DNA from: Methanotrichaceae archaeon
Lineage (GTDB): Archaea > Halobacteriota > Methanosarcinia > Methanotrichales > Methanotrichaceae
DNA length: 64,000 nt
Direction: 5' to 3'
Assembly (NCBI GenBank): GCA_963847095.1
Contig: CAWJYS010000021.1
Coordinates: forward strand, 123,590-187,589
Both the position numbers and the translations under genes were made by a program. Below are positions 2,909 to 21,368 of this stretch, piece by piece (the stretch's first letter is position 1; each line of letters opens with the position of its first letter). The notes under the pieces were generated by a model. That model did no database searches and had not been told where the DNA came from. It worked only from the letters and a program-made list of their open reading frames with translations.

Positions 2909-3382
2909 CATAGTAGTCTTTGCTGCATAACTGCATAAACCTGGATACAGGAAAAAGCTGTTATCCTCGTCGTTCTTGTCATCCGATGAACCCTTGTAGG
3001 CTCTTAATGACGGAGATGACAGGGATGACGATGTTTTTTCTATAATGGCCTCATGATAGAGTCAGATCCACCCAACGCCTTTTCAATATCTACTGCATAA
3101 TCTTTATTTTTAATGAATACCACGCAGCTTGCAGCGGGGTGCGCCGTCGCCAGTTTGACTTCCATCAAGCCGATACCGATCGTAACCATCAAGGATTAAC
3201 TTAAAGAAGAAGTAATGCAGAAAACCCGCTTATGCGCTGTGCCTGACTGGAGTGTGGGGCTAATTGAGCCTGTACCTATTCTTATACCTATTATGCCTCA
3301 ACAAGGACAGGGTATATAGAGAAAATCTGGCGAAAGCAATGCCTCTCGTCTGCAATAAATTGAGGAGGTTACCCCTACTACC

Positions 3383-4687
3383 ATGATGCATGCCACCCTC
3401 GACGATTGGATTCGACATGAAGCGATTCCTTTCTCCGTCGATTCGTCCGAAACCTTCAACGCCGCCGTCGACAAGATGATCGCCTCACTTGGTGACTCGG
3501 TGGAGTTGCTTGGCTTTGGAGAAGCACTCCACGGCGGCGAGGACATTCTTATACTCCGCAACCGGCTCTTCCAGCGCCTGGTGGAGGCGCATGGCTACAG
3601 CGCCATTGCCATCGAGAGCAGTTTCCCTCGGGCGCGCGTAGTGAACGAGTACATTGCCGGTCGCGGCCCGGCATCGTATGACGCTCTGCAGGACACTGGA
3701 TTTAGCCACGGCTTTGGCCGGCTCGACGCGAATCGAGAACTCGTAGAGTGGATGAGGGAGTTCAATGCCGATCCAACGCATCGCGTCAAACTCCAGTTCT
3801 ACGGCTTCGATAGTCCGACTGAAATGATTGGCACCGATAGCCCAAGGCAGGTCCTCCATTTTGTTCTCGATTACCTCACCTCGATTGACAGTGCTAGCGG
3901 GGAGGAGCATTGCCAGCGTATCGACCAGCTTCTTGGCCAGGACTCTGATTGGGAGAACCCCGCTGCAGCGATGGACCCAACTAAGTCGATAGGCCAGTCA
4001 CCGGCCGCAACTGCGCTCCGGATTGAGACTGAGGATCTCATTGCAGAACTGGGCGCACGCCGCCCTGAACTGGTGGCCAAAAGCGACGAGAACCGCTATT
4101 TGGAAGCCGTGCAGTACGCAACGGTCGCACGGCAGTTGCTGAACTATCATGCCGCGCTGGCGCTAAAGTTGGACGATGACGCGAAACGGATCGTCAGACT
4201 TCTCGGTATGCGCGATGCGTTGATGGCAGATAATCTGGCGTATATGGTGGCCCGTGAGCGTGGCCGAGGGAAAGTGCTGGCCTTCGCTCACAACAGCCAC
4301 CTTCAGCTTGGGAAGGCACAATGGCAACTTGGCACTTACGTATTAACATGGTGGCCTGCTGGAGCGCAGCTCCAGGAGATGCTCGGCTCACGTTATGCCG
4401 TCATCGGAACGGCCGTGGGCGTTTCTGATGCCAATGGCATCGGCCAGCCAAAAGACGGCACTCTAGAGGCGCGGCTGACTGCCGGCCCAGGGCCCACGCG
4501 GTTCATTCCAACTCACAAAGGCCAAGGGCTTCCAACCTCGGCAATCGCAGCTCTTCCGACTCGCTCGGGCAGTATGAAGAACCCGACCTACTTCGCACTA
4601 ACTCCTCAAAGCTTCACCGATTTCGACTGGCTGGCTGTCCTAGATTCAACGGCATACAACCGCGGTGGGCCGCCGCTGCAACAATAG
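3383..4687 (+). CDS. Erythromycin-esterase-family (Ere-like) protein
   Basis: N-terminal LLGFGEALHGGEDIL...AIAIESSF resembles the LGEATHGT..FAIE core of erythromycin esterases. The gene is GC-rich relative to its flanks. Confidence 0.7.
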   Translation: MMHATLDDWIRHEAIPFSVDSSETFNAAVDKMIASLGDSVELLGFGEALHGGEDILILRNRLFQRLVEAHGYSAIAIESSFPRARVVNEYIAGRGPASYDALQDTGFSHGFGRLDANRELVEWMREFNADPTHRVKLQFYGFDSPTEMIGTDSPRQVLHFVLDYLTSIDSASGEEHCQRIDQLLGQDSDWENPAAAMDPTKSIGQSPAATALRIETEDLIAELGARRPELVAKSDENRYLEAVQYATVARQLLNYHAALALKLDDDAKRIVRLLGMRDALMADNLAYMVARERGRGKVLAFAHNSHLQLGKAQWQLGTYVLTWWPAGAQLQEMLGSRYAVIGTAVGVSDANGIGQPKDGTLEARLTAGPGPTRFIPTHKGQGLPTSAIAALPTRSGSMKNPTYFALTPQSFTDFDWLAVLDSTAYNRGGPPLQQ

Positions 4688-4789
4688 GACGCTAACCCCA
4701 AGCAGTGACTTCCTCCCCACCCTACCCCACCCTAAAGGGTCGGGCTTCCTGATTCATAGAGATGGCTCCTTTGGTTATCCACAAAAGCC

Positions 4790-4832
4790 TTTTGTAGTTT
4801 TTCTCTGTGTCTCTGTGCCTCTGTGGTGAGTT
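4790..4832. repeat. Copy of the dispersed CTCTGTGCCTCTGTGGTG repeat element
   Basis: ctctgtgtctctgtgcctctgtggtgag is identical to 36131-36155. Confidence 0.6.
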
Positions 4833-5036
4833 TAGTTTTGTTTAGTAGATGAAGCGGTGATTTCGAAGATCAGCGTGCCGAACTGTCCTCCTGCATGATG
4901 ACGAAGACATTGCCCTCTGTATCCTGGTAGTTTGCAAATTCCCATTTTTGTATCTTCCATCCAAATACTTCAGAATTCATTTCCTTTTTTGGAATTAAAG
5001 TTAACTTGGGTAGTCTACCTAATTAAATATCTTGCT

Positions 5037-5765: not shown

Positions 5766-7205
5766 TTATACAAAAGTCCGGATCTCATGCCCATTCTTAT
5801 CCCCTCTTCCAATTCCCTTATATACGAAACCCATATCAATAAATTTATCAGGTTCCACCACATTTCGGCCGTCCACGATGATAGGATTCTTCTGGCCGGT
5901 CAGCCTTTTTATCCAGGCTGGATCGAGCTTGAAATAATCAGAGTGAGCGGTCATTATCGAAACACTATCAGCCCCCCTCACAACCTCCTCTAAATCCCTG
6001 TCAAGTTCCACACCAGGATAACTCAGCACATGCGGATCATGTACGGCGACTTCAGCCCCTGCTTCATGCAAAAGATCTCTGTACAGCTCTGAGGGAGGAT
6101 TTCGTGCATCATCTGAATCGTTGATGAAAGCCCACCCGAGGATTGCGATCTTGGATCCTTCCGGCCTTTTGCCGATGCGTTCAAGCGCACTCACCGTCAG
6201 GTGATACATGTGCTTTGGCATGAAATCGTTCACCTTTCTGGCGAGAACATAGATCGAATCCGCTCCATCCGGATAATCCAGATCGCCACCTCGGATCTTC
6301 ACGCCGCGTTCCAGATGGTATGTGTCCTTTGTTAGACAATGCCCACCAACGCCAGCTCCCGGCCACAAAACGGCTCGTGTTATTCCTTCCCCTTTCAGGC
6401 TGTCAATGCCTGCTCTTACATCGTAGACATTGATGCCCATGGCCTCACAATACAGCGCCAGCTGATTCACGGCCGCAATCTGAAGGTCTCTGAATGTGTT
6501 CTCGGCGGTTTTGGTGACCTCTGCAGCGGTTGCCGTCATCTTGATGATCTTTCCTTTTGTCAGAACTGGGGAGTAAAGTTCAACCGCTCGCTCTGTGCTG
6601 GCGTCGTCGATGCCTCCGACAATCCGGTCATGTTCCCGAATGTTCTTGAGAAGACGCCCCACCATAACCCTTTCCGGCGCATGCGCAAGTGCAAAATCTT
6701 CCCCTGCAATGAGTCCCGACTCCTCCTCGAGGATCTGTCGCGCCATGCCATCAGTGGTTCCTGGTGTGATGGTTGACTCCAGCACTACTAACATTCCTGG
6801 CCGTAAATATTTTCCAGCATTACGGATGCCGGCATTCAGTGCACTGAAATCAGGCTCGAGGTCCTTTGGGCTGGCAAAGGGCGTCTGAATGGCCAATGTC
6901 ACCGCATCCATCTCTGAGATCCTGGAAAAGTCAGATGTACACTCAAACTTCTCAGCATTTACAACCTTCTTAAGCAGCTCTTCAAGTCCCGGCTCATTGC
7001 CTTTCAAGGGGCTTTCTCCTCTATTTAGCATATCAATCTTGTATCCTGATGTACTGGACGCTCGTTGAAACCCCAAAACAAGGTCGAATTCGTCAGCATC
7101 TGCAAACAGGACTGCGGCAGGAATTCCTACATATCCCATGCCCATTACGCCGATCTTCTTAATTGGCCCTCTCTTCGATAATAACGATTGTAGTTTGCCG
7201 GTCAT
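5766..7205 (-). CDS. Nucleotide-sugar dehydrogenase (UDP-glucose/GDP-mannose dehydrogenase family)
   Basis: N-terminal IGVMGMGYVGIPAAV Rossmann motif and catalytic-Cys motif GAGVGGHCLTKD. Confidence 0.85.
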   Translation of the reverse strand: MTGKLQSLLSKRGPIKKIGVMGMGYVGIPAAVLFADADEFDLVLGFQRASSTSGYKIDMLNRGESPLKGNEPGLEELLKKVVNAEKFECTSDFSRISEMDAVTLAIQTPFASPKDLEPDFSALNAGIRNAGKYLRPGMLVVLESTITPGTTDGMARQILEEESGLIAGEDFALAHAPERVMVGRLLKNIREHDRIVGGIDDASTERAVELYSPVLTKGKIIKMTATAAEVTKTAENTFRDLQIAAVNQLALYCEAMGINVYDVRAGIDSLKGEGITRAVLWPGAGVGGHCLTKDTYHLERGVKIRGGDLDYPDGADSIYVLARKVNDFMPKHMYHLTVSALERIGKRPEGSKIAILGWAFINDSDDARNPPSELYRDLLHEAGAEVAVHDPHVLSYPGVELDRDLEEVVRGADSVSIMTAHSDYFKLDPAWIKRLTGQKNPIIVDGRNVVEPDKFIDMGFVYKGIGRGDKNGHEIRTFV

Positions 7206-7821: not shown

Positions 7822-7920
7822 GACGTTTTCAGTTTAGAGATAACTTTATCTGATCTCCATTATAATGATACCAAAGACTTATTAGCTACTAATGCACATA
7901 TTTGTAAAGGTGATATATTT

Positions 7921-8163
7921 ATGGTAGAGTTATCTCCGGATGATATAGATAAGATAGCAAACAAGGTCTTTGCAAAAATCGCTGAATCTATGATAAGAAA
8001 AGAGACTGGCGAGCCAACTCCAACCCCGACGCCAACTTGCCCAGAAGGTATGAAATTTGGATGCCCGAATAATGATGCTTTCGGATGTGATATAGGAGTG
8101 TTTGTGTGCACAGGTAAGGGATTCAAATGCCACCCCAAATATGTGGGATTTGAAAGGATATGA
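7921..8163 (+). CDS. Candidate RiPP precursor peptide (leader, PTPTPTPT linker, 5-Cys core)
   Basis: 80 aa reading MVELSPDDIDKIANKVFAKIAESMIRKETGEPTPTPTPTCPEGMKFGCPNNDAFGCDIGVFVCTGKGFKCHPKYVGFERI. There is no signal peptide, and it sits 81 nt upstream of an rSAM/SPASM gene. Confidence 0.45.
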   Translation: MVELSPDDIDKIANKVFAKIAESMIRKETGEPTPTPTPTCPEGMKFGCPNNDAFGCDIGVFVCTGKGFKCHPKYVGFERI

Positions 8164-8243
8164 AATCCAATATTTATAAGTTGGGCGGAGGCAAAATCCA
8201 GCATTAACTCAAACGCAGATTCATATTCTGATGGTAAGGCATC

Positions 8244-9422
8244 ATGCAAAGAGATATAATAAATGGGATTAGCAGTACTTTATTAGATCCTGATAACTTA
8301 ACCTCTTTCTGCATGAGCTTAAAAGAAGAGTTCAATTATACTCCGGAAGATTGCAGATCCTTCATTTATCAAGTAACTAAACAAATAAATGCAAAGCTAT
8401 TCCCCCCGATTACTGCATTAGAGCTGATAGTAACAGAAGACTGTAACCTAAGATGCGCATATTGCTTTGAGAAAGGTATGATTGGACGCGAGAAGATGTC
8501 TCTCAAAGTAGCTCAGGCAGCGATTGATCTTCTATTTGATTATTCTCAGGAGGAGAAAGACCTTTATATAACCTATTTCGGTGGAGAACCGCTTCTAAAC
8601 TTTCCTTTAATAAAATCTATTACTGAATATGTAGTGAAAAAGGAAGAATTCTCAGGGAAGAAAGTAGAATTCAGCATGACCAGTAATGGGGTTCTCCTCA
8701 ATGAATCAATGGCAGAATACCTTGCAATGCATAAGATAAATGTACTCTTAAGTATCGATGGATCTAAATTATCACATGATCTCTGCAGAGTAGATAAAAA
8801 AGGGCGCGGTACTTTTGAAAGATCAATAAAAGGATTGAAGATACTTAAGAAGTTTCAGCCGTGGATAGGAACAAGAATGACCGTTGTACCTGGTAATGTG
8901 CAAAGATTATACGAAGATGTAGTGGAGCTTCACGATCTAGGCATAAACCAATTTATCATTTGCCATGCCACGGGAATAGAATGGTCTAAAGAGGATATCG
9001 AGTCCTTTAGTTTGCAGATGAGAAAAATAGCGCATTGGTATAGGGAGAAATCCAGCAAAAATCTAAGGATATCTGTGCTAGATGAAGAAGATAGTGGATC
9101 AAGTTTTTTTGGCTGTCACGCTGCCAGAAATAGCATTTCCGTATCTGCAAACGGAGAGATATCTCCCTGTTCGAAGATTCTATCTTTGAATAATAAACGA
9201 TTGATATATAAGTTGGGCGATGTTGAATACGGCCTGATTAATGTTCTCAACAGGGCAGAGTTAATAAGTTGCTCAAAGCTTCGATCTGCTTGTAATGCGC
9301 TTCAGATAGCTGAAAGTTTCAGAGGAGGCTGCTTTGCAGCTAATTATGAGGATAATGGCGACATATTCCAGCCAAGTATTCAGGACCATGTATTCTCATT
9401 ACAATATCGATCTCTGTCATGA
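8244..9422 (+). CDS. Radical SAM enzyme with a C-terminal SPASM-type auxiliary-cluster domain (peptide-modifying maturase family)
   Basis: CNLRCAYC (CxxxCxxC) radical-SAM motif, followed by C-terminal Cys-rich CSKILS...CSKLRSACNALQ...GGCFAA. Confidence 0.85.
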   Translation: MQRDIINGISSTLLDPDNLTSFCMSLKEEFNYTPEDCRSFIYQVTKQINAKLFPPITALELIVTEDCNLRCAYCFEKGMIGREKMSLKVAQAAIDLLFDYSQEEKDLYITYFGGEPLLNFPLIKSITEYVVKKEEFSGKKVEFSMTSNGVLLNESMAEYLAMHKINVLLSIDGSKLSHDLCRVDKKGRGTFERSIKGLKILKKFQPWIGTRMTVVPGNVQRLYEDVVELHDLGINQFIICHATGIEWSKEDIESFSLQMRKIAHWYREKSSKNLRISVLDEEDSGSSFFGCHAARNSISVSANGEISPCSKILSLNNKRLIYKLGDVEYGLINVLNRAELISCSKLRSACNALQIAESFRGGCFAANYEDNGDIFQPSIQDHVFSLQYRSLS

Positions 9423-9454
9423 AGATCATTGCTAACGGTGACTATTCTGGTCAA

Positions 9455-9590
9455 TCCTCAAGGTATATTCCTCCTTTAGCTGGCTATAGCCATATAATCC
9501 AAAATAGCGCAAAGTAATTCACAGCAGAACTTGCCATCATCTTAAGAAGAGATTAAGGTAAAAGTTATTTGTGGAAGTTCCGGTAACTCA
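9455..9590. repeat. Copy 1 of a 135-bp direct repeat (promoter/leader-like)
   Basis: About 80% identical to 9893-10030. Shared core: ggctatagccatataa.ccaaaatagcgcaaagta. Confidence 0.6.
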
Positions 9591-9665
9591 GAACCTTAAG
9601 TAGAACTTTATCAGCCTTGATTAGCTACCAAATGAATTAATACTAGTAGTGTATTTAGCGGTTTT

Positions 9666-9776
9666 ATGGCAAACACACAAACAGATAAGAAGGTCGGTAA
9701 AGGAGAAGAAGAATCTAAAAAGGCCGGAAAAAATACAGGAGATACAACAGAAAAAGTAGTGGTGGTCAAAAGATAA
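9666..9776 (+). CDS. Small Lys-rich ORF (36 aa) downstream of repeat copy 1
   Basis: Reads MANTQTDKKVGKGEEESKKAGKNTGDTTEKVVVVKR. The only support is its position after a repeated upstream module. Confidence 0.2.
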   Translation: MANTQTDKKVGKGEEESKKAGKNTGDTTEKVVVVKR

Positions 9777-9892
9777 TCAGAATTCTTTCCGTTTTTTATA
9801 TTTTAGGACTTACGATTCGCAGAAAACTTCTTATAAATTTCTAATTTGACCTTTACGGCATGGATTTCCTGCTCGGATGGATGATTAGACAT

Positions 9893-10030
9893 GCCTTAAG
9901 GTATATTCACTCCATTAGGCGGCTATAGCCATATAAGCCAAAATAGCGCAAAGTATTTCATAGCTAAGCTTACCACCTTTTCAAAAAGAGATTAAAGCAA
10001 AGATAGTTAGCGGAAGTTCTGGAAATGAAG
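9893..10030. repeat. Copy 2 of the 135-bp direct repeat, immediately upstream of CDS 10038
   Basis: See copy 1. Confidence 0.6.
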
Positions 10031-10037
10031 GGATGAA

Positions 10038-10664
10038 ATGGACCTTAATTTAACAGGTGAACTTTGGGGTATGCCTATTAGTTTTATAGGCCAAATGACG
10101 GAAGAATCATCTATAGAGATTACTGATTGGTTACCTTCATTAATATCAATCGTCGTCGTGATAATAGGCGGTTTCATAACATATTCATCAACGATAAGTA
10201 TAGAAGAAAGAAAACTACAATATGAACTAAAAAAGAAAGCTTATTTTGATGTATTGGATGTAGTTCCTAAAATGGATGAAGTAATGAAATCTTGGGATAT
10301 ATATTGGTCTAATTACAATTCGCTTGATCGTGAAATGGAGAGGTTACAAACTGATAGGCCGAATTATATACAGAAAGACAAAGTTATAGTGGAAAGACTA
10401 AAAGAATCGGCAGATTTATTACAATCATATCAGATAAAAATACTAATTTGCGCTAATGAAGACGTAACCACTAGTTTTGATAAGGTAATGAACATGTTTA
10501 AAGATGAATTAAAGAGGTATGATTCATCTAACGAAGGTAAATATGATACCTTTAGTGACGAGCCTTATGATACCTTTAGCGGTATCCTATTCAAGGAATT
10601 AATACCAGCAATGAGAAATGATTTAATGAAAAGCAAAAAACAATGGTGGAAATTTTGGAAATAA
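10038..10664 (+). CDS. Hypothetical membrane-anchored protein
   Basis: 208 aa with one N-terminal TM segment (LISIVVVIIGGFITY). AT-rich. Confidence 0.5.
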   Translation: MDLNLTGELWGMPISFIGQMTEESSIEITDWLPSLISIVVVIIGGFITYSSTISIEERKLQYELKKKAYFDVLDVVPKMDEVMKSWDIYWSNYNSLDREMERLQTDRPNYIQKDKVIVERLKESADLLQSYQIKILICANEDVTTSFDKVMNMFKDELKRYDSSNEGKYDTFSDEPYDTFSGILFKELIPAMRNDLMKSKKQWWKFWK

Positions 10665-10974
10665 TTTTTATTTTTCTTTCATTCCCAGAGGTCACTCTGT
10701 TAACATGTTCATTCCATAGTTTATGAGAATAACCTCTTCCTGGAGCACACCATCACGATATCCATACCTTTACCAATATAAGGAGATTACAGAATTAGGG
10801 AGGGAGGATAGACCCATAAGGAGGCAAGCTTTTTCCTATCAGATCTACTCCCAATCTCATAATGTGATTTGTTCTAATATATAGATTGTGAGACAATATA
10901 AACGTTTAAATGTCATGTACCAATGATATAGAAGTTATTAAAAGCAAAATGATACAAACAGTTGGACGGGGGAA

Positions 10975-11277
10975 ATGGTCCGATATAGACCTGCTATCAA
11001 GATCGTGCTAAGGATTCTTGAGTGCATAGCTACAAGGCAATCAAGTGGGCGGGCCTTAAAAACTCATATAATCCAATGTGCAAACCTGAAGACCACTTCC
11101 GCTGAAAAGTATCTTGAGATGCTGAGAGAGGCGGGGTATGTCATTGAGAATAGAGAGAACTGGGGGGAGCGTGTGGTCATTGTATATGAGCTGACCCCTT
11201 TAGGGAGAGAGCGGTATAACTGGTTCAATAGGATCAATACCGAGCTTTTCAAGCCAAATGAATGGCTGGATGAGTGA
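10975..11277 (+). CDS. Small winged-helix transcriptional-regulator-like protein
   Basis: 100 aa with an archaeal wHTH-like pattern (TSAEKYLEMLREAGYV...ELTPLGRE). Confidence 0.5.
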   Translation: MVRYRPAIKIVLRILECIATRQSSGRALKTHIIQCANLKTTSAEKYLEMLREAGYVIENRENWGERVVIVYELTPLGRERYNWFNRINTELFKPNEWLDE

Positions 11278-11636
11278 TAATTACGGTCGAGGCCAATAAT
11301 AATCTTACAGATAGCTCTTATGAGCTGGTTGAGAGGATTGAGCGCAAAAGGATGTTGTTGACTGTAATCGTTATCGCTTGTTTTGTTCTTGCACCTATAG
11401 GAATAGGCAAAACTACTCATTCTATCATAGCAACATCTCACGAGAAAGGAGATTGGTCGAATACAAATATAGCTTCCACAGGAATTATTTTTGCAATTTC
11501 GGCTATGCTACTTGCTATGGGTATAAAGAAATATAAGGTGATCAAAGACTTAAAAAGCAAGCTAGCGCAGATGCAACTTTTTGAAGAGACAATCTATAAT
11601 GAGGTGCTAAAGTCAAATATGCGCCAATTGGAGTAG
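11274..11636 (+). CDS. Small membrane protein
   Basis: 120 aa with two hydrophobic segments. Its start overlaps the stop of 10975-11277. Confidence 0.4.
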   Translation: MIITVEANNNLTDSSYELVERIERKRMLLTVIVIACFVLAPIGIGKTTHSIIATSHEKGDWSNTNIASTGIIFAISAMLLAMGIKKYKVIKDLKSKLAQMQLFEETIYNEVLKSNMRQLE

Positions 11637-11686
11637 ACGATTATCAATTATCTGACAACCAAATGAAACCTAAAAACCAATGTCGG

Positions 11687-11740
11687 ATGGGGCCACTGCG
11701 ATTTGAACGCAGGTCACAAGACCCCCAGTCTTGTAGGATA
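11687..11740 (-). repeat. 54-nt perfect duplicate of the 3' part of tRNA-Pro(GGG), from the anticodon stem to the discriminator: att-site-like island boundary
   Basis: Identical to 21295-21348. Identity ends exactly at the tRNA discriminator on one side and inside the D-arm region on the other. Confidence 0.8.
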
Positions 11741-12220
11741 TCATTGAGCTTACGATTTCAATCCAAGGCTTTGTCCATAGAGCGCTTTATTCATATAGAG
11801 AAGATGAAGGCTTCTTAGGCCGCTTTAAAAGGTATGTGAAAGGAGTAGAGCCTTCGAATCTGATGGAGTTGATTTCATCTCGGAGGCTCTTTATTAGCAA
11901 AGAAATGGCACTGGATGATTTGATTCTCCCGAACGAAGCGTGATATGAATTTATCCAGTGCAACAACGGCATTGAGGAGGCTTATGGCTTGCGACCTTCT
12001 GCCTGGGTGAGCTGCCATGGGCAGGAGCTTTGAGAGCGTGAGGATAGGCGCGAAGTATGTCTCGGTCAAATGGCCGAAGGATGGATGATTAGGGGAATAA
12101 TCGGATTCGTAGGCATGGCCCGTGGATCTCATAATACTGTGATTCCTTCCTTCAACGATTACTCCATTATCTTGAGCAGCAAGAAAGGTATTCCAGCTAT
12201 CCGGGAGGTTTGTTATGCAG

Positions 12221-12790
12221 CTATTGCCGTGCCCTTTGTGCTAGATCTTCGGCCCACCGGTGGATCTCTTCCCAGTCCCTAGTATCGATCAATCCAGGGC
12301 TTGTCTCCTTAAAACCTGCTTCCTCAAATTGCTTGATAAGGGGAGCCAGGGTTCGCCGGAAGATAAAACCCATTTTGTTCTTATCCATGACGCCGCCAAA
12401 CAGGCCCAGAGCAATAGGATGCAGGTTATACTTTGATGCCTCGTCTTCTAAATACTGTTTCCTGAAGTTCTGTATATCCTCCATTTTGCCTTCGCGTTCA
12501 TATAGCGATTTTACGGCTGAAGAAACGAAGATGGCAACCTTCTTTTGGGCTAGGTCTTTCTGGAAGCTCTTTAGAAAAGCATCGCTCTCGCCGGTCCATC
12601 TGCCCATCTTTAGGCCGCCACCGACGACGATAAGATCGAACTCCGAGATATCTTTAATCTTCTCTTTTTTAAGGTCGACTACCCTGACGTCGAAGTTGTC
12701 ATGGCGGAGAATCTTGGCAATCTCTTCGGCGGTTCCGGCAGTGGCGCCATAACGGGTAGAGTAGGCAATTAAGGTTTTCGTTTTTCTCAC
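12221..12790 (-). CDS. Flavodoxin
   Basis: N-terminal KTLIAYSTRYGATAGTAEEIA FMN-binding loop, 189 aa. Confidence 0.75.
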   Translation of the reverse strand: MRKTKTLIAYSTRYGATAGTAEEIAKILRHDNFDVRVVDLKKEKIKDISEFDLIVVGGGLKMGRWTGESDAFLKSFQKDLAQKKVAIFVSSAVKSLYEREGKMEDIQNFRKQYLEDEASKYNLHPIALGLFGGVMDKNKMGFIFRRTLAPLIKQFEEAGFKETSPGLIDTRDWEEIHRWAEDLAQRARQ

Positions 12791-18981: not shown

Positions 18982-19035
18982 ATACCCATCCCTTTTTTAG
19001 CCACTTACCTTATTGAAATGCTCATGAAGCTAAGG

Positions 19036-19085
19036 CTTTTCCTACCCGGTGAACAACATAAACTATATCTGAGTTATCGCCATCA
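19036..19085 (+). promoter_or_regulatory. Conserved upstream module C
   Basis: Carries the identical leader GGAGGGAGAAGAGC-TTG-AAA-CTC seen in module B. Confidence 0.55.
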
Positions 19086-19110
19086 CCTTCATCAAAGGAG
19101 GGAGAAGAGC

Positions 19111-19737
19111 TTGAAACTCGTTGAAGCTGGAATAATCGCTATAACACTATTTTGTTTAGCAGGGAATGCATATGGAGTTATGCAAGTCTATGATAGTGAT
19201 TTTGGCAAAATTAAAGTTGATTTGCCCATGGTGCTAATCCCAAAAGATGGGAATACAGGTACTTGGATAGACTTAGTTAAGGAAGGATCAGAAAAGCCTG
19301 TCATCTCTATACGCATGCAAACAACTTATGGGGAAGATTTTAAAAAATACGCAACTTCATCAGGCTTTAAGAGTATACCGATTGAAACAACAACCAATGA
19401 CGGATATAAAATAATTTATTACTCTGACCACAGTGGCACTAATAGTCAATATCAACCTGTATATCATTATACTGCGTTTATTGATTACTTGAAAGATAAG
19501 GGTAAGATAGTGCAAATGTGGACTTATTCAGAAGTAAATGGGAAAGAAGGAGCAGTAGCTAGATTTGATAAAGATCAATTCCTTGAAATATCCAAATCCT
19601 TTGCTGTTATAAGTGAATCAGAAGCGCAAGCTATAGTGGCGGAAACTGCAAAAACAAACCAATCGCCGGGATTTGGATCATTCTTCGCTATTCTGAGCCT
19701 TCTCGGAGCTATTTTTATCATGCAAAAGATAAAGTAG
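19111..19737 (+). CDS. Secreted protein with a PGF-CTERM archaeal sorting signal (TTG start at 19111; the tracked ORF from 19018 is over-extended)
   Basis: N-terminus (M)KLVEAGIIAITLFCLAGNAYG. C-terminus SPGFGSFFAILSLLGAIFIMQKIK, i.e. a PGF motif, TM helix and basic tail. Confidence 0.6.
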   Translation: MKLVEAGIIAITLFCLAGNAYGVMQVYDSDFGKIKVDLPMVLIPKDGNTGTWIDLVKEGSEKPVISIRMQTTYGEDFKKYATSSGFKSIPIETTTNDGYKIIYYSDHSGTNSQYQPVYHYTAFIDYLKDKGKIVQMWTYSEVNGKEGAVARFDKDQFLEISKSFAVISESEAQAIVAETAKTNQSPGFGSFFAILSLLGAIFIMQKIK

Positions 19738-21295: not shown

Positions 21296-21368
21296 TGGGG
21301 CCACTGCGATTTGAACGCAGGTCACAAGACCCCCAGTCTTGTAGGATACCAGGCTACCCTATGGCCCC
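21296..21368 (-). tRNA. tRNA-Pro (anticodon GGG), no encoded CCA
   Basis: The reverse complement GGGGCCATAGGGTAGCCTGGTATCCTACAAGACTGGGGGTCTTGTGACCTGCGTTCAAATCGCAGTGGCCCCA folds as a cloverleaf: acceptor stem 7 bp, anticodon stem CAAGA/TCTTG with loop CTGGGGG, and T arm CTGCG-TTCAAAT-CGCAG. Confidence 0.85.

Follow-up and report, generated by a model that had tools for sequence, protein, structure and literature searches.

The 64,000-nucleotide stretch of DNA analysed here (the window; contig CAWJYS010000021.1 of the Methanotrichaceae archaeon assembly GCA_963847095.1, forward-strand positions 123,590 to 187,589) carries a gene for a short cysteine-rich peptide followed by a gene for a radical S-adenosylmethionine (rSAM) enzyme (Table 1). 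A preliminary description of this DNA had proposed that the two form an archaeal cluster for a peptide that is ribosomally synthesized and then post-translationally modified (RiPP), with the enzyme acting as a thioether-forming maturase. Both open reading frames (ORFs) lie on the forward strand where that description placed them, and the smaller one has the layout it reported: its N-terminus is hydrophilic, a (PT)4 linker follows, and the last 41 residues contain five Cys. The lack of a signal peptide, judged from sequence only, also stands. The gap between the genes measures 80 nt (8164–8243) and not the 81 nt given there. Peptide and rSAM enzyme constitute a conserved gene pair.

Table 1. 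Positions of the gene pair and of the module that contains it (nucleotide positions are those of the window; aa, amino acids)
Feature	Position	Strand	Description
Precursor gene	7921–8163	+	80 aa; read from ORFs: MVELSPDDIDKIANKVFAKIAESMIRKETGEPTPTPTPTCPEGMKFGCPNNDAFGCDIGVFVCTGKGFKCHPKYVGFERI
Precursor leader	aa 1–39		Helix motif LSPDDIDKIANKVFAKI and (PT)4 linker
Precursor core	aa 40–80		Five Cys, aromatic residue after each
rSAM gene	8244–9422	+	392 aa
rSAM N-terminal domain	8244–8399	+	aa 1–52; predicted three-helix bundle (AlphaFold2)
Radical-SAM core	8409–9113	+	aa 56–290; SAM-cluster motif C67-x3-C71-x2-C74
Degenerate SPASM-type C-terminal domain	9114–9422	+	aa 291–392; from Pfam, Cys tally and CteB alignment
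Left module end and precursor expression signals	7859–7920	+	Abrupt onset of DNA similarity to locus L123
AT-rich TATA-like box ATTATAAT	7859–7866	+	By reading the sequence; ~55 nt before precursor
Shine-Dalgarno-like GGTGAT	7909–7914	+	By reading the sequence; 6 nt before precursor ATG
36-aa Lys/Glu-rich ORF MANTQTDKKVGKGEEESKKAGKNTGDTTEKVVVVKR	9666–9776	+	Within shared module, downstream of rSAM gene
Right module end, T-run TTTCCGTTTTTT	9777–9797	+	Directly 3′ of 36-aa ORF

Among about 30 loci with gene context, a precursor-like ORF adjoins the orthologous rSAM gene in nearly all those that are informative. The pairing is found in Candidatus Methanoperedens contigs (L001, L006/L007 and L123), in Pelotomaculum (L004), Bacillus toyonensis (L005) and Kitasatospora (L125), and in about twenty soil and sediment metagenome contigs. 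In the cyanobacterium Aphanocapsa lilacina (L104), the core ORF lies downstream of the rSAM gene (about 3170–4400); its Cys/aromatic core is the end of a long open frame that stops at 6025, and the start and size of this precursor are uncertain. The window peptide used as the sole query recovered three close homologs, which alone could suggest an unconserved ORF; it was the DNA upstream of the rSAM homologs that revealed the family. In a scan of reference genomes, the full-length rSAM alignment drew in an overwhelming number of SCIFF maturases through the generic CNLxCxYCF motif and gave only six useful loci, while a metagenome scan with the family-specific C-terminal half of the enzyme worked. 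With a profile built from database members, an exhaustive search of 1.84 billion cluster representatives returned 56 matches, and the architecture was present in all 48 of the 48 short ones. The long matches P0143, P0144 and P0179 were rejected as precursors, being low-complexity or repeat artefacts.

The assembled set, drawn from archaea and from many phyla of bacteria, comprises 88 precursors with 451 core Cys between them. They follow a common plan of an N-terminal amphipathic helix motif, with the consensus (L/M)(S/T)P-E/D-x-hydrophobic-x-x-hydrophobic-A-x-x-hydrophobic, then a variable linker and a C-terminal Cys/aromatic core. Neither NCBIfam nor Pfam has a family that covers these precursors, and their public names are all “hypothetical protein”. 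The same holds for every entry with the exact window precursor sequence, which occurs in public metagenome assemblies; the exact window rSAM sequence was absent from the public protein collection searched. Variations on the plan were also seen. Two tandem precursor ORFs (2–256 and 372–635) lie upstream of one rSAM gene in L090, and P0153, P0154, P0171, P0174 and P0191 are single ORFs with two leader-core units in series. More distant rSAM genes, encoding enzymes of 36–37% identity (L009, Sumerlaeia; L010, Bacillota), lie directly downstream of genes for repeat proteins of 220–269 aa (4152–4814 and 4161–4970, respectively), in which dozens of (D)F-x-C or GPFQFGC repeats give protein-sized substrates with the same F-x-C unit.

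The preliminary description had left the conservation of the small ORF to be checked, and the ORF proved to be both conserved and co-located with orthologous rSAM genes. Against L123, a close relative whose rSAM is 92% identical, the precursor has a ratio of non-synonymous to synonymous substitution rates (dN/dS) of 0.09 as a whole and of 0.03 within the core. In more distant comparisons this ratio climbs to 0.4–0.65 with the scaffold retained, and that of the rSAM gene remains at 0.15. These substitution ratios indicate that the precursor ORF is under purifying selection, and the trend, with a core that changes faster than the enzyme, is the usual pattern of RiPP cores. One ORF in the window has at least four [F/Y/W]-x-C units in 40 aa, against 0.05 expected from residue shuffles of all window ORFs; the pattern exceeds chance. 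By its sequence features (a conserved leader, a variable core, an adjacent enzyme and an association that persists across taxa), the pair qualifies as a RiPP cassette in the general sense.

The core has a distinctive substrate signature. An aromatic residue (Phe or Tyr) stands exactly at −2 of 83% of the 451 core Cys, compared with 18% in a shuffle null, and a downstream aromatic occurs before the next Cys for 90% of them, compared with 60% in the null, the modal distance being +4. Of the Cys clusters, 97% end with an aromatic after the last Cys; the first Cys has an aromatic at −2 in merely 65%. From these statistics the repeating unit can be written as C-x(2-4)-[F/Y]-x-(C...), closing in C-x(2-4)-[F/Y]. 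In the window core the Cys-then-aromatic pairs are C40..F46, C48..F54, C56..F61, C63..F68 and C70..Y74. The signature of PapB, the ranthipeptide maturase of Paenibacillus polymyxa, is Asp or Glu at +4, which is found for 32 of the 451 core Cys (7%). One such segment in the window peptide, CPNND (C-x3-D), was considered as a PapB-type site and rejected, as close relatives carry CPNGT, CPSQT or CPSGN instead. PapB needs the donor Cys N-terminal to the acceptor, tolerates spacings of 0–6 residues and leaves a transposed motif unprocessed (PMC9413430). Thioethers from each Cys to the downstream aromatic are favoured for the present family because they leave almost no residue unpaired and match this polarity and spacing tolerance.

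The enzyme is a member of the radical SAM superfamily, as the invariant C67-x3-C71-x2-C74 motif, a match to PF04055 (66 bits; cutoff 29.5) and a fold like those of CteB and the anaerobic sulfatase-maturating enzyme (anSME) establish; a match to Fer4_12 (38.6 bits) was also obtained. The CxxxCxxC motif had been noted in the preliminary description, and the Cys triad is invariant across the family. The nearest relatives of the enzyme, at 89–92% identity, are from Candidatus Methanoperedens. Among NCBIfam models the best is that of PapB (NF047865), which aligns almost from end to end (model positions 2–330 of 330) with rSAM residues 56–377 at 234.5 bits. It is also the best model for all 30 aligned family members, the best relative reaching E 1.8e-70 with a score about that of the window protein. 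The next models are the nif11, SCIFF, CcpM and QhpD maturases at 153–163 bits, including SCIFF (TIGR03974) at 158.3 bits against a cutoff of 425 and QhpD (TIGR03906) at 153.2 bits against 453. Lower still are the sactisynthase RumMC (102 bits; cutoff 720), anSME (TIGR03942; 93.4 bits; cutoff 349) and the cyclophane synthases YhhB (NF041707; 86 bits), XyeB (TIGR04496; 63 bits) and GrrM (TIGR04261; 63 bits), whose cutoffs are 310–450. Membership in the PapB, SCIFF, QhpD or anSME families was rejected, since all curated cutoffs were missed. The enzyme does not group with sulfatase or cofactor maturases, a placement that the preliminary description had regarded as fatal to its proposal.

The closest solved structure is the thioether synthase CteB, both by sequence (E 7.7e-36) and by fold (Foldseek E 1e-23, TM 0.75), with an AlphaFold2 model of the window rSAM (pLDDT 89.6) as the query of the fold search. 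Six catalytic-site residues of CteB have been used to sort thioether synthases (PMC10288494). In the sequence alignment they map to F75, F112, T146, S170, S310 and K311 of the window enzyme, and the first four are identical to CteB positions 1–4 and invariant in 121 homologs.

Ahead of the radical-SAM core lies an N-terminal extension, for which the preliminary description gave roughly 60 aa and a possible function as a peptide-recognition element. The extension is there, at about 55 aa; a recognisable RiPP recognition element (RRE) is not. The AlphaFold2 model has helices at residues 2–14, 16–30 and 34–52 and no strands, and no Pfam match to PqqD or an RRE was found in 30 family members at E ≤ 1. 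According to the model, then, this domain is not a canonical RRE. It is conserved in the homologs (95–100% query coverage), with L13 and N49 invariant, and may be a leader-binding module of another kind.

The C-terminal domain had been described as SPASM-like and Cys-rich. It is homologous to SPASM domains, as supposed, but degenerate, with a Pfam SPASM score of 20.0 bits against the gathering threshold of 21.5. The seven-Cys SPASM motif (CX9-15GX4C – gap – CX2CX5CX3C – gap – C) ligates two auxiliary [4Fe-4S] clusters. A tally of Cys over the 121 homologs showed that C291-x12-G-x4-C309 and C363 are invariant, and these are the counterpart of the three-Cys site of auxiliary cluster I in CteB. 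C350 is 93% and C343 87% conserved, and the middle two Cys of CX2CX5CX3C are present in at most 1% of the homologs; the full seven-Cys ligand set is therefore incomplete, its second half keeping C350 and C363 only, and the clade of the window enzyme lacks any distal Cys. An extra C-terminal CxxC tail (e.g., RSACSGCSGH) occurs in 57% of the homologs and in none of the Methanoperedens clade, the window enzyme included. On this pattern auxiliary cluster I would be intact, the second cluster would be rearranged in most of the bacteria, and the CxxC tail could supply its missing ligands. Because the SPASM domain is degenerate, a second auxiliary cluster is doubtful in the clade of the window enzyme, which probably carries a single one. 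Having members with and without the tail, the family offers a natural comparison that bears on what the second SPASM cluster does.

The pair sits in a low-GC module of ~1.9 kb (7860–9797) that consists of the precursor gene, the rSAM gene, the 36-aa ORF and the T-run. Nucleotide similarity between the window and L123 starts abruptly at ~7860 and stops at ~9797, within a few bases past the T-run, and the flanks are unrelated on both sides. The module has 37.7% GC against 46.7% for the window, which agrees with the AT-richness noted in the preliminary description and ranks it in the lowest 9% of 2-kb windows. Each of the relatives examined has different genes beside the pair. The rSAM family is patchily distributed across archaea and at least five bacterial phyla at ~50% identity, with representatives in archaea, Acidobacteria, Firmicutes, Actinobacteria and cyanobacteria. 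By sequence comparison, the gene pair and the 36-aa ORF look like a horizontally acquired mobile module. The proposed archaeal RiPP cluster thus holds as a RiPP pairing but is not peculiar to archaea: bacteria account for the greater part of the family, and the cassette appears to have been acquired horizontally. Searches of plasmid and phage collections returned no family members, the phage matches being SCIFF-like at 27–29% identity. In B. toyonensis (L005, 3633–5335 and 10497–12609) the cassette lies by resolvase and integrase genes, near a Pycsar-like pair (PycTM and cyclase), which suggests that it resides within a mobile or defence island.

A dedicated protease or exporter was detected neither in the module or its vicinity nor beside the relatives’ loci examined, in agreement with the preliminary description, which had reported none next to the pair. 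Because the cassette has neither, its product would stay intracellular or need host functions, as with SCIFF. The L008 precursor (4219–4635) and P0155 have a twin-arginine (Tat) signal before leader and core, that of L008 scoring 16.6 bits with TIGR01409 (cutoff 16.7). Such a signal suggests cytoplasmic maturation followed by export of the modified peptide in those bacteria.

Taken together, the profile searches and the homologous Cys-rich ORFs beside rSAM genes support interpreting the pair as a thioether-RiPP system, as had been proposed. In the ranthipeptide class an rSAM enzyme installs a thioether from a Cys sulfur to a beta or gamma carbon, and in the sactipeptide class to the alpha-carbon. 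The likeness of the window enzyme to ranthisynthases in sequence and fold provides a lead towards the former. We consider it reasonably probable that the locus represents a RiPP family so far without a name, related to ranthipeptide systems, and that it forms a self-contained cassette capable of horizontal movement.

The nearest characterised system is PapA/PapB (freyrasin). NF047865 is the best curated family for the window enzyme and every aligned relative, with an end-to-end model match; both systems have a multi-Cys precursor with several close in-line units, and the modal C-x3-aromatic here has the spacing of C-x3-D in PapB, with the Cys N-terminal to the presumed acceptor in both (PMC9413430). 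There are also differences: the score is well under the family cutoff, and an aromatic residue takes the position where PapB substrates have Asp or Glu. The RRE of PapB has 86 residues (PMC12715619), compared with the 52-residue three-helix domain here, and PapB is described as a SPASM enzyme with two auxiliary clusters, whereas the present family lacks two of the four Cys in CX2CX5CX3C. In our view, the family would be a sister of PapB in its own right, set apart by its substrate code, its reduced domain for cluster binding and its minimal leader-binding candidate.

CteA/CteB (thermocellin) and SCIFF/ScfB (PDB 5WGG, TIGR03974) offer the closest solved structure and the same minimal layout of precursor and maturase with no dedicated protease or transporter, and CteB agrees with the window enzyme at active-site positions 1–4 and in the three Cys that ligate auxiliary cluster I. 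However, identity to CteB is ~25%, the TIGR03974 score is far below its cutoff (158 versus 425 bits), CteB has ~95 RRE residues ahead of the core where the window enzyme has ~55, and its auxiliary-cluster-II ligands are not conserved here. The SCIFF family is recognised by an adjacent six-Cys-in-forty-five precursor; the precursors here have no similarity to SCIFF peptides (no NCBIfam match), and SCIFF is essentially clostridial, unlike the broadly distributed family described here. QhpD is a related thioether-forming rSAM (153 bits) that puts several Cys-to-side-chain cross-links into QhpC, a small Cys-rich polypeptide of a complex. In contrast to that system, the window enzyme scores below the 453-bit cutoff, no qhp dehydrogenase genes were found near the window pair or in the relatives’ loci examined, and the Asp/Glu acceptors of QhpC are not conserved. 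The triceptide systems (XyeB, GrrM/OscB, FxsB and YhhB) also use a repeated three-residue unit that starts with an aromatic, aromatic-X-X3 there and [F/Y]-x-C here, and SPASM-type rSAM enzymes of which several have no classical RRE. They differ in that their enzyme models score 62–86 bits against cutoffs of 310–450, that the third residue here is an invariant Cys, and that an additional conserved aromatic follows the last Cys.

A mechanism can be sketched on this basis. The amphipathic leader helix would dock on the short three-helix N-terminal domain of the enzyme. Auxiliary cluster I would, as in CteB, have three conserved Cys ligands and an open iron, to which each core Cys thiolate would bind. 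The 5′-deoxyadenosyl radical derived from SAM would then take a hydrogen from a nearby residue, and the resulting carbon radical would couple to the sulfur. The likeliest acceptor would be the aromatic that follows every Cys (modal C-x3-F/Y, equal in spacing to C-x3-D of PapB), with the bond at its benzylic beta-carbon. The product would have up to five in-line thioether rings, each with a mass change of −2 Da, which in the window peptide would pair C40 with F46, C48 with F54, C56 with F61, C63 with F68 and C70 with Y74; in the Methanoperedens clade the enzyme would probably run with one auxiliary cluster, not two. As to biological role, a signalling or competition peptide is our default guess. 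The specific proposal of a novel chemistry, i.e., serial thioethers from Cys sulfur to the benzylic beta-carbon of Phe or Tyr in C-x(2-5)-aromatic units, made by an enzyme with one auxiliary cluster and three-helix leader recognition in place of an RRE, with the window copy as the first tractable archaeal ranthipeptide system on a mobile module of ~1.9 kb, is a tentative one that we think rather unlikely to hold in full.

Several observations weigh against a ranthipeptide-related cassette of this type. The window enzyme misses the PapB cutoff (234.5 bits versus 340) along with every other curated NCBIfam family cutoff, and the last two of the six catalytic-site positions differ from CteB, being S310/K311 here and H363/Q364 there. 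The degenerate SPASM domain might mean a chemistry unlike that of two-cluster thioether synthases, and the three-helix domain is only a candidate for peptide binding. The alternative register, Ar-x-C, with the aromatic upstream of the Cys, accounts for 83% of the Cys. Both the bond type (S–C-alpha, S–C-beta or C–C) and the acceptor are read from sequence statistics alone.

Of the other explanations, a sactipeptide system survives best, and we regard it as unlikely. It would have the same genes and logic, with the Cys sulfur linked to the alpha-carbon of the acceptor (a sactionine). Aromatic acceptors (Phe) occur in known sactipeptides, and Cys-Phe alpha-carbon links are known from subtilosin A. 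Some enzymes with a single auxiliary cluster (twitch), such as SkfB, which is among the fold matches, are sactisynthases. Moreover, sactisynthases and ranthisynthases fall in the same SPASM/twitch rSAM group, in which full-length similarity is no reliable discriminator and the two are hard to separate (PMC10288494). Yet ranthisynthases (PapB, CteB and QhpD-like) lead the matches both by sequence and by fold, the sactisynthase models score far lower, catalytic-site positions 1–4 equal those of the ranthisynthase CteB, and the in-line, close spacing of Cys and acceptor resembles PapB/NxxcB and not the classical hairpin topology (PMC10288494).

That the peptide, modified or not, is no released natural product at all seems to us improbable. 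It would then be an intracellular small protein, such as a cross-linked redox or metal-binding module, a subunit or a cofactor-bearing protein, comparable to QhpC as matured by QhpD. The absence of a protease or exporter in or near the module, in the window and in relatives, fits this explanation, as do QhpD among the stronger matches, the multi-repeat proteins of 220–269 aa that accompany the enzyme in the distant relatives L009 and L010, and a five-Cys core that could bind metal. On the other hand, no conserved partner genes (e.g., for dehydrogenase subunits) lie beside the pair; RiPPs typically show such a layout of leader and core, such rapid divergence of the core and such a patchy, mobile distribution; and the Tat signals of some members (L008 and P0155) imply export of the product. 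This explanation is about what becomes of the product and can stand together with the enzymology proposed above.

A triceptide-like cyclophane system is more improbable still, despite the aromatic exactly at −2 of 83% of the core Cys against the 18% expected, which is the geometry of the triceptide motif. The triceptide-associated ChlB is among the fold matches, and YhhB, XyeB and GrrM are among the weaker model matches; the cyclophane-synthase models nevertheless score two to four times below the thioether-synthase models. Position X3 is essentially always Cys, pointing to sulfur chemistry or cluster ligation and not to a generic C–H donor. A cyclophane would also leave the aromatic after the last Cys, present in 97% of clusters, without a partner, and the open auxiliary-cluster-I site of the CteB type is conserved. 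A coincidental adjacency, with an rSAM that matures a sulfatase, a cofactor or another non-peptide substrate beside an unrelated or non-coding 80-aa ORF, is extremely improbable: a structural relationship to anSME can be detected (Foldseek E 6.5e-17; 93 bits) and a homolog is listed as “anaerobic sulfatase-maturating enzyme” in one public record, but the anSME cutoff is 349 bits, no sulfatase gene was found in the flanks of the pair, and the pairing of ORF and rSAM with a shared motif across domains of life, the ORF being under purifying selection, effectively refutes it.

In the searchable literature, whose coverage is incomplete, neither the family nor its motif was found described, which amounts to no more than an absence of evidence. 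The general class is a familiar one, and the cassette would probably be picked up generically by genome-mining tools. Family members are annotated merely as “radical SAM protein” beside “hypothetical protein”, although they are widespread in soil and sediment bacteria and in the methane-oxidising Methanoperedens archaea. Thioether-stapling rSAM enzymes such as PapB already serve as catalysts of peptide macrocyclisation. If the cassette works as proposed, an aromatic-targeting sister family would add a chemically robust staple from Cys to a benzylic carbon, and the enzyme would be a compact one for engineering (392 aa, no RRE and possibly one auxiliary cluster). According to a 2025 survey, archaeal rSAM RiPP clusters exist as predictions and are essentially uncharacterised (PMC12144867). 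With almost no archaeal RiPP products characterised (PMC12144867), a cassette of just two genes, amenable to synthesis and co-expression, puts the question within direct experimental reach, and its small, clean form is relevant to RiPP and rSAM specialists.

The TATA-like box, as read from its motif and position, may act as the promoter of the precursor gene, and the T-run could be an archaeal oligo-T terminator. RNA structure in the 80-nt spacer between precursor and rSAM genes, where an attenuator might lie, was not significant (z −1.1). The 36-aa ORF is a possible third gene of the cassette. It was seen, at 92% amino acid identity, in L123 and L124 only, had no match in the family-library search, and shows three synonymous and three non-synonymous substitutions, read off the L123 alignment; its coding status is uncertain. 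A 116-nt direct repeat, with 78% identical copies at 9471–9586 and 9910–10025, brackets this ORF and the right module end; L123 keeps merely a 27-nt piece of the first copy. RNA folding of the repeat is not significant (z +0.2), and the window contains no further copy of it.

The low-GC tract (~37.6%) spans 7860–12000, and so extends ~2 kb past the shared module. It includes genes for a 208-aa membrane-anchored hypothetical protein (10038–10664), an Sso10a/HTH_45 winged-helix protein (10975–11277) and a 120-aa membrane protein (11274–11636); several insertions may together have built up a larger island here. Outside the shared module, 2.8 kb downstream of the rSAM gene, lies a flavodoxin gene (12221–12790, − strand), whose product could be the physiological reductant of the rSAM enzyme. 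Elsewhere in the window, the Rfam search found nothing besides one tRNA (21296–21368, − strand), a protein with the archaeal PGF-CTERM sorting motif, in keeping with a euryarchaeal host, is encoded at 18982–19737 (+ strand), and an erythromycin-esterase-family protein is encoded at 3359–4687 (+ strand) in a GC-rich patch (58–60% GC).

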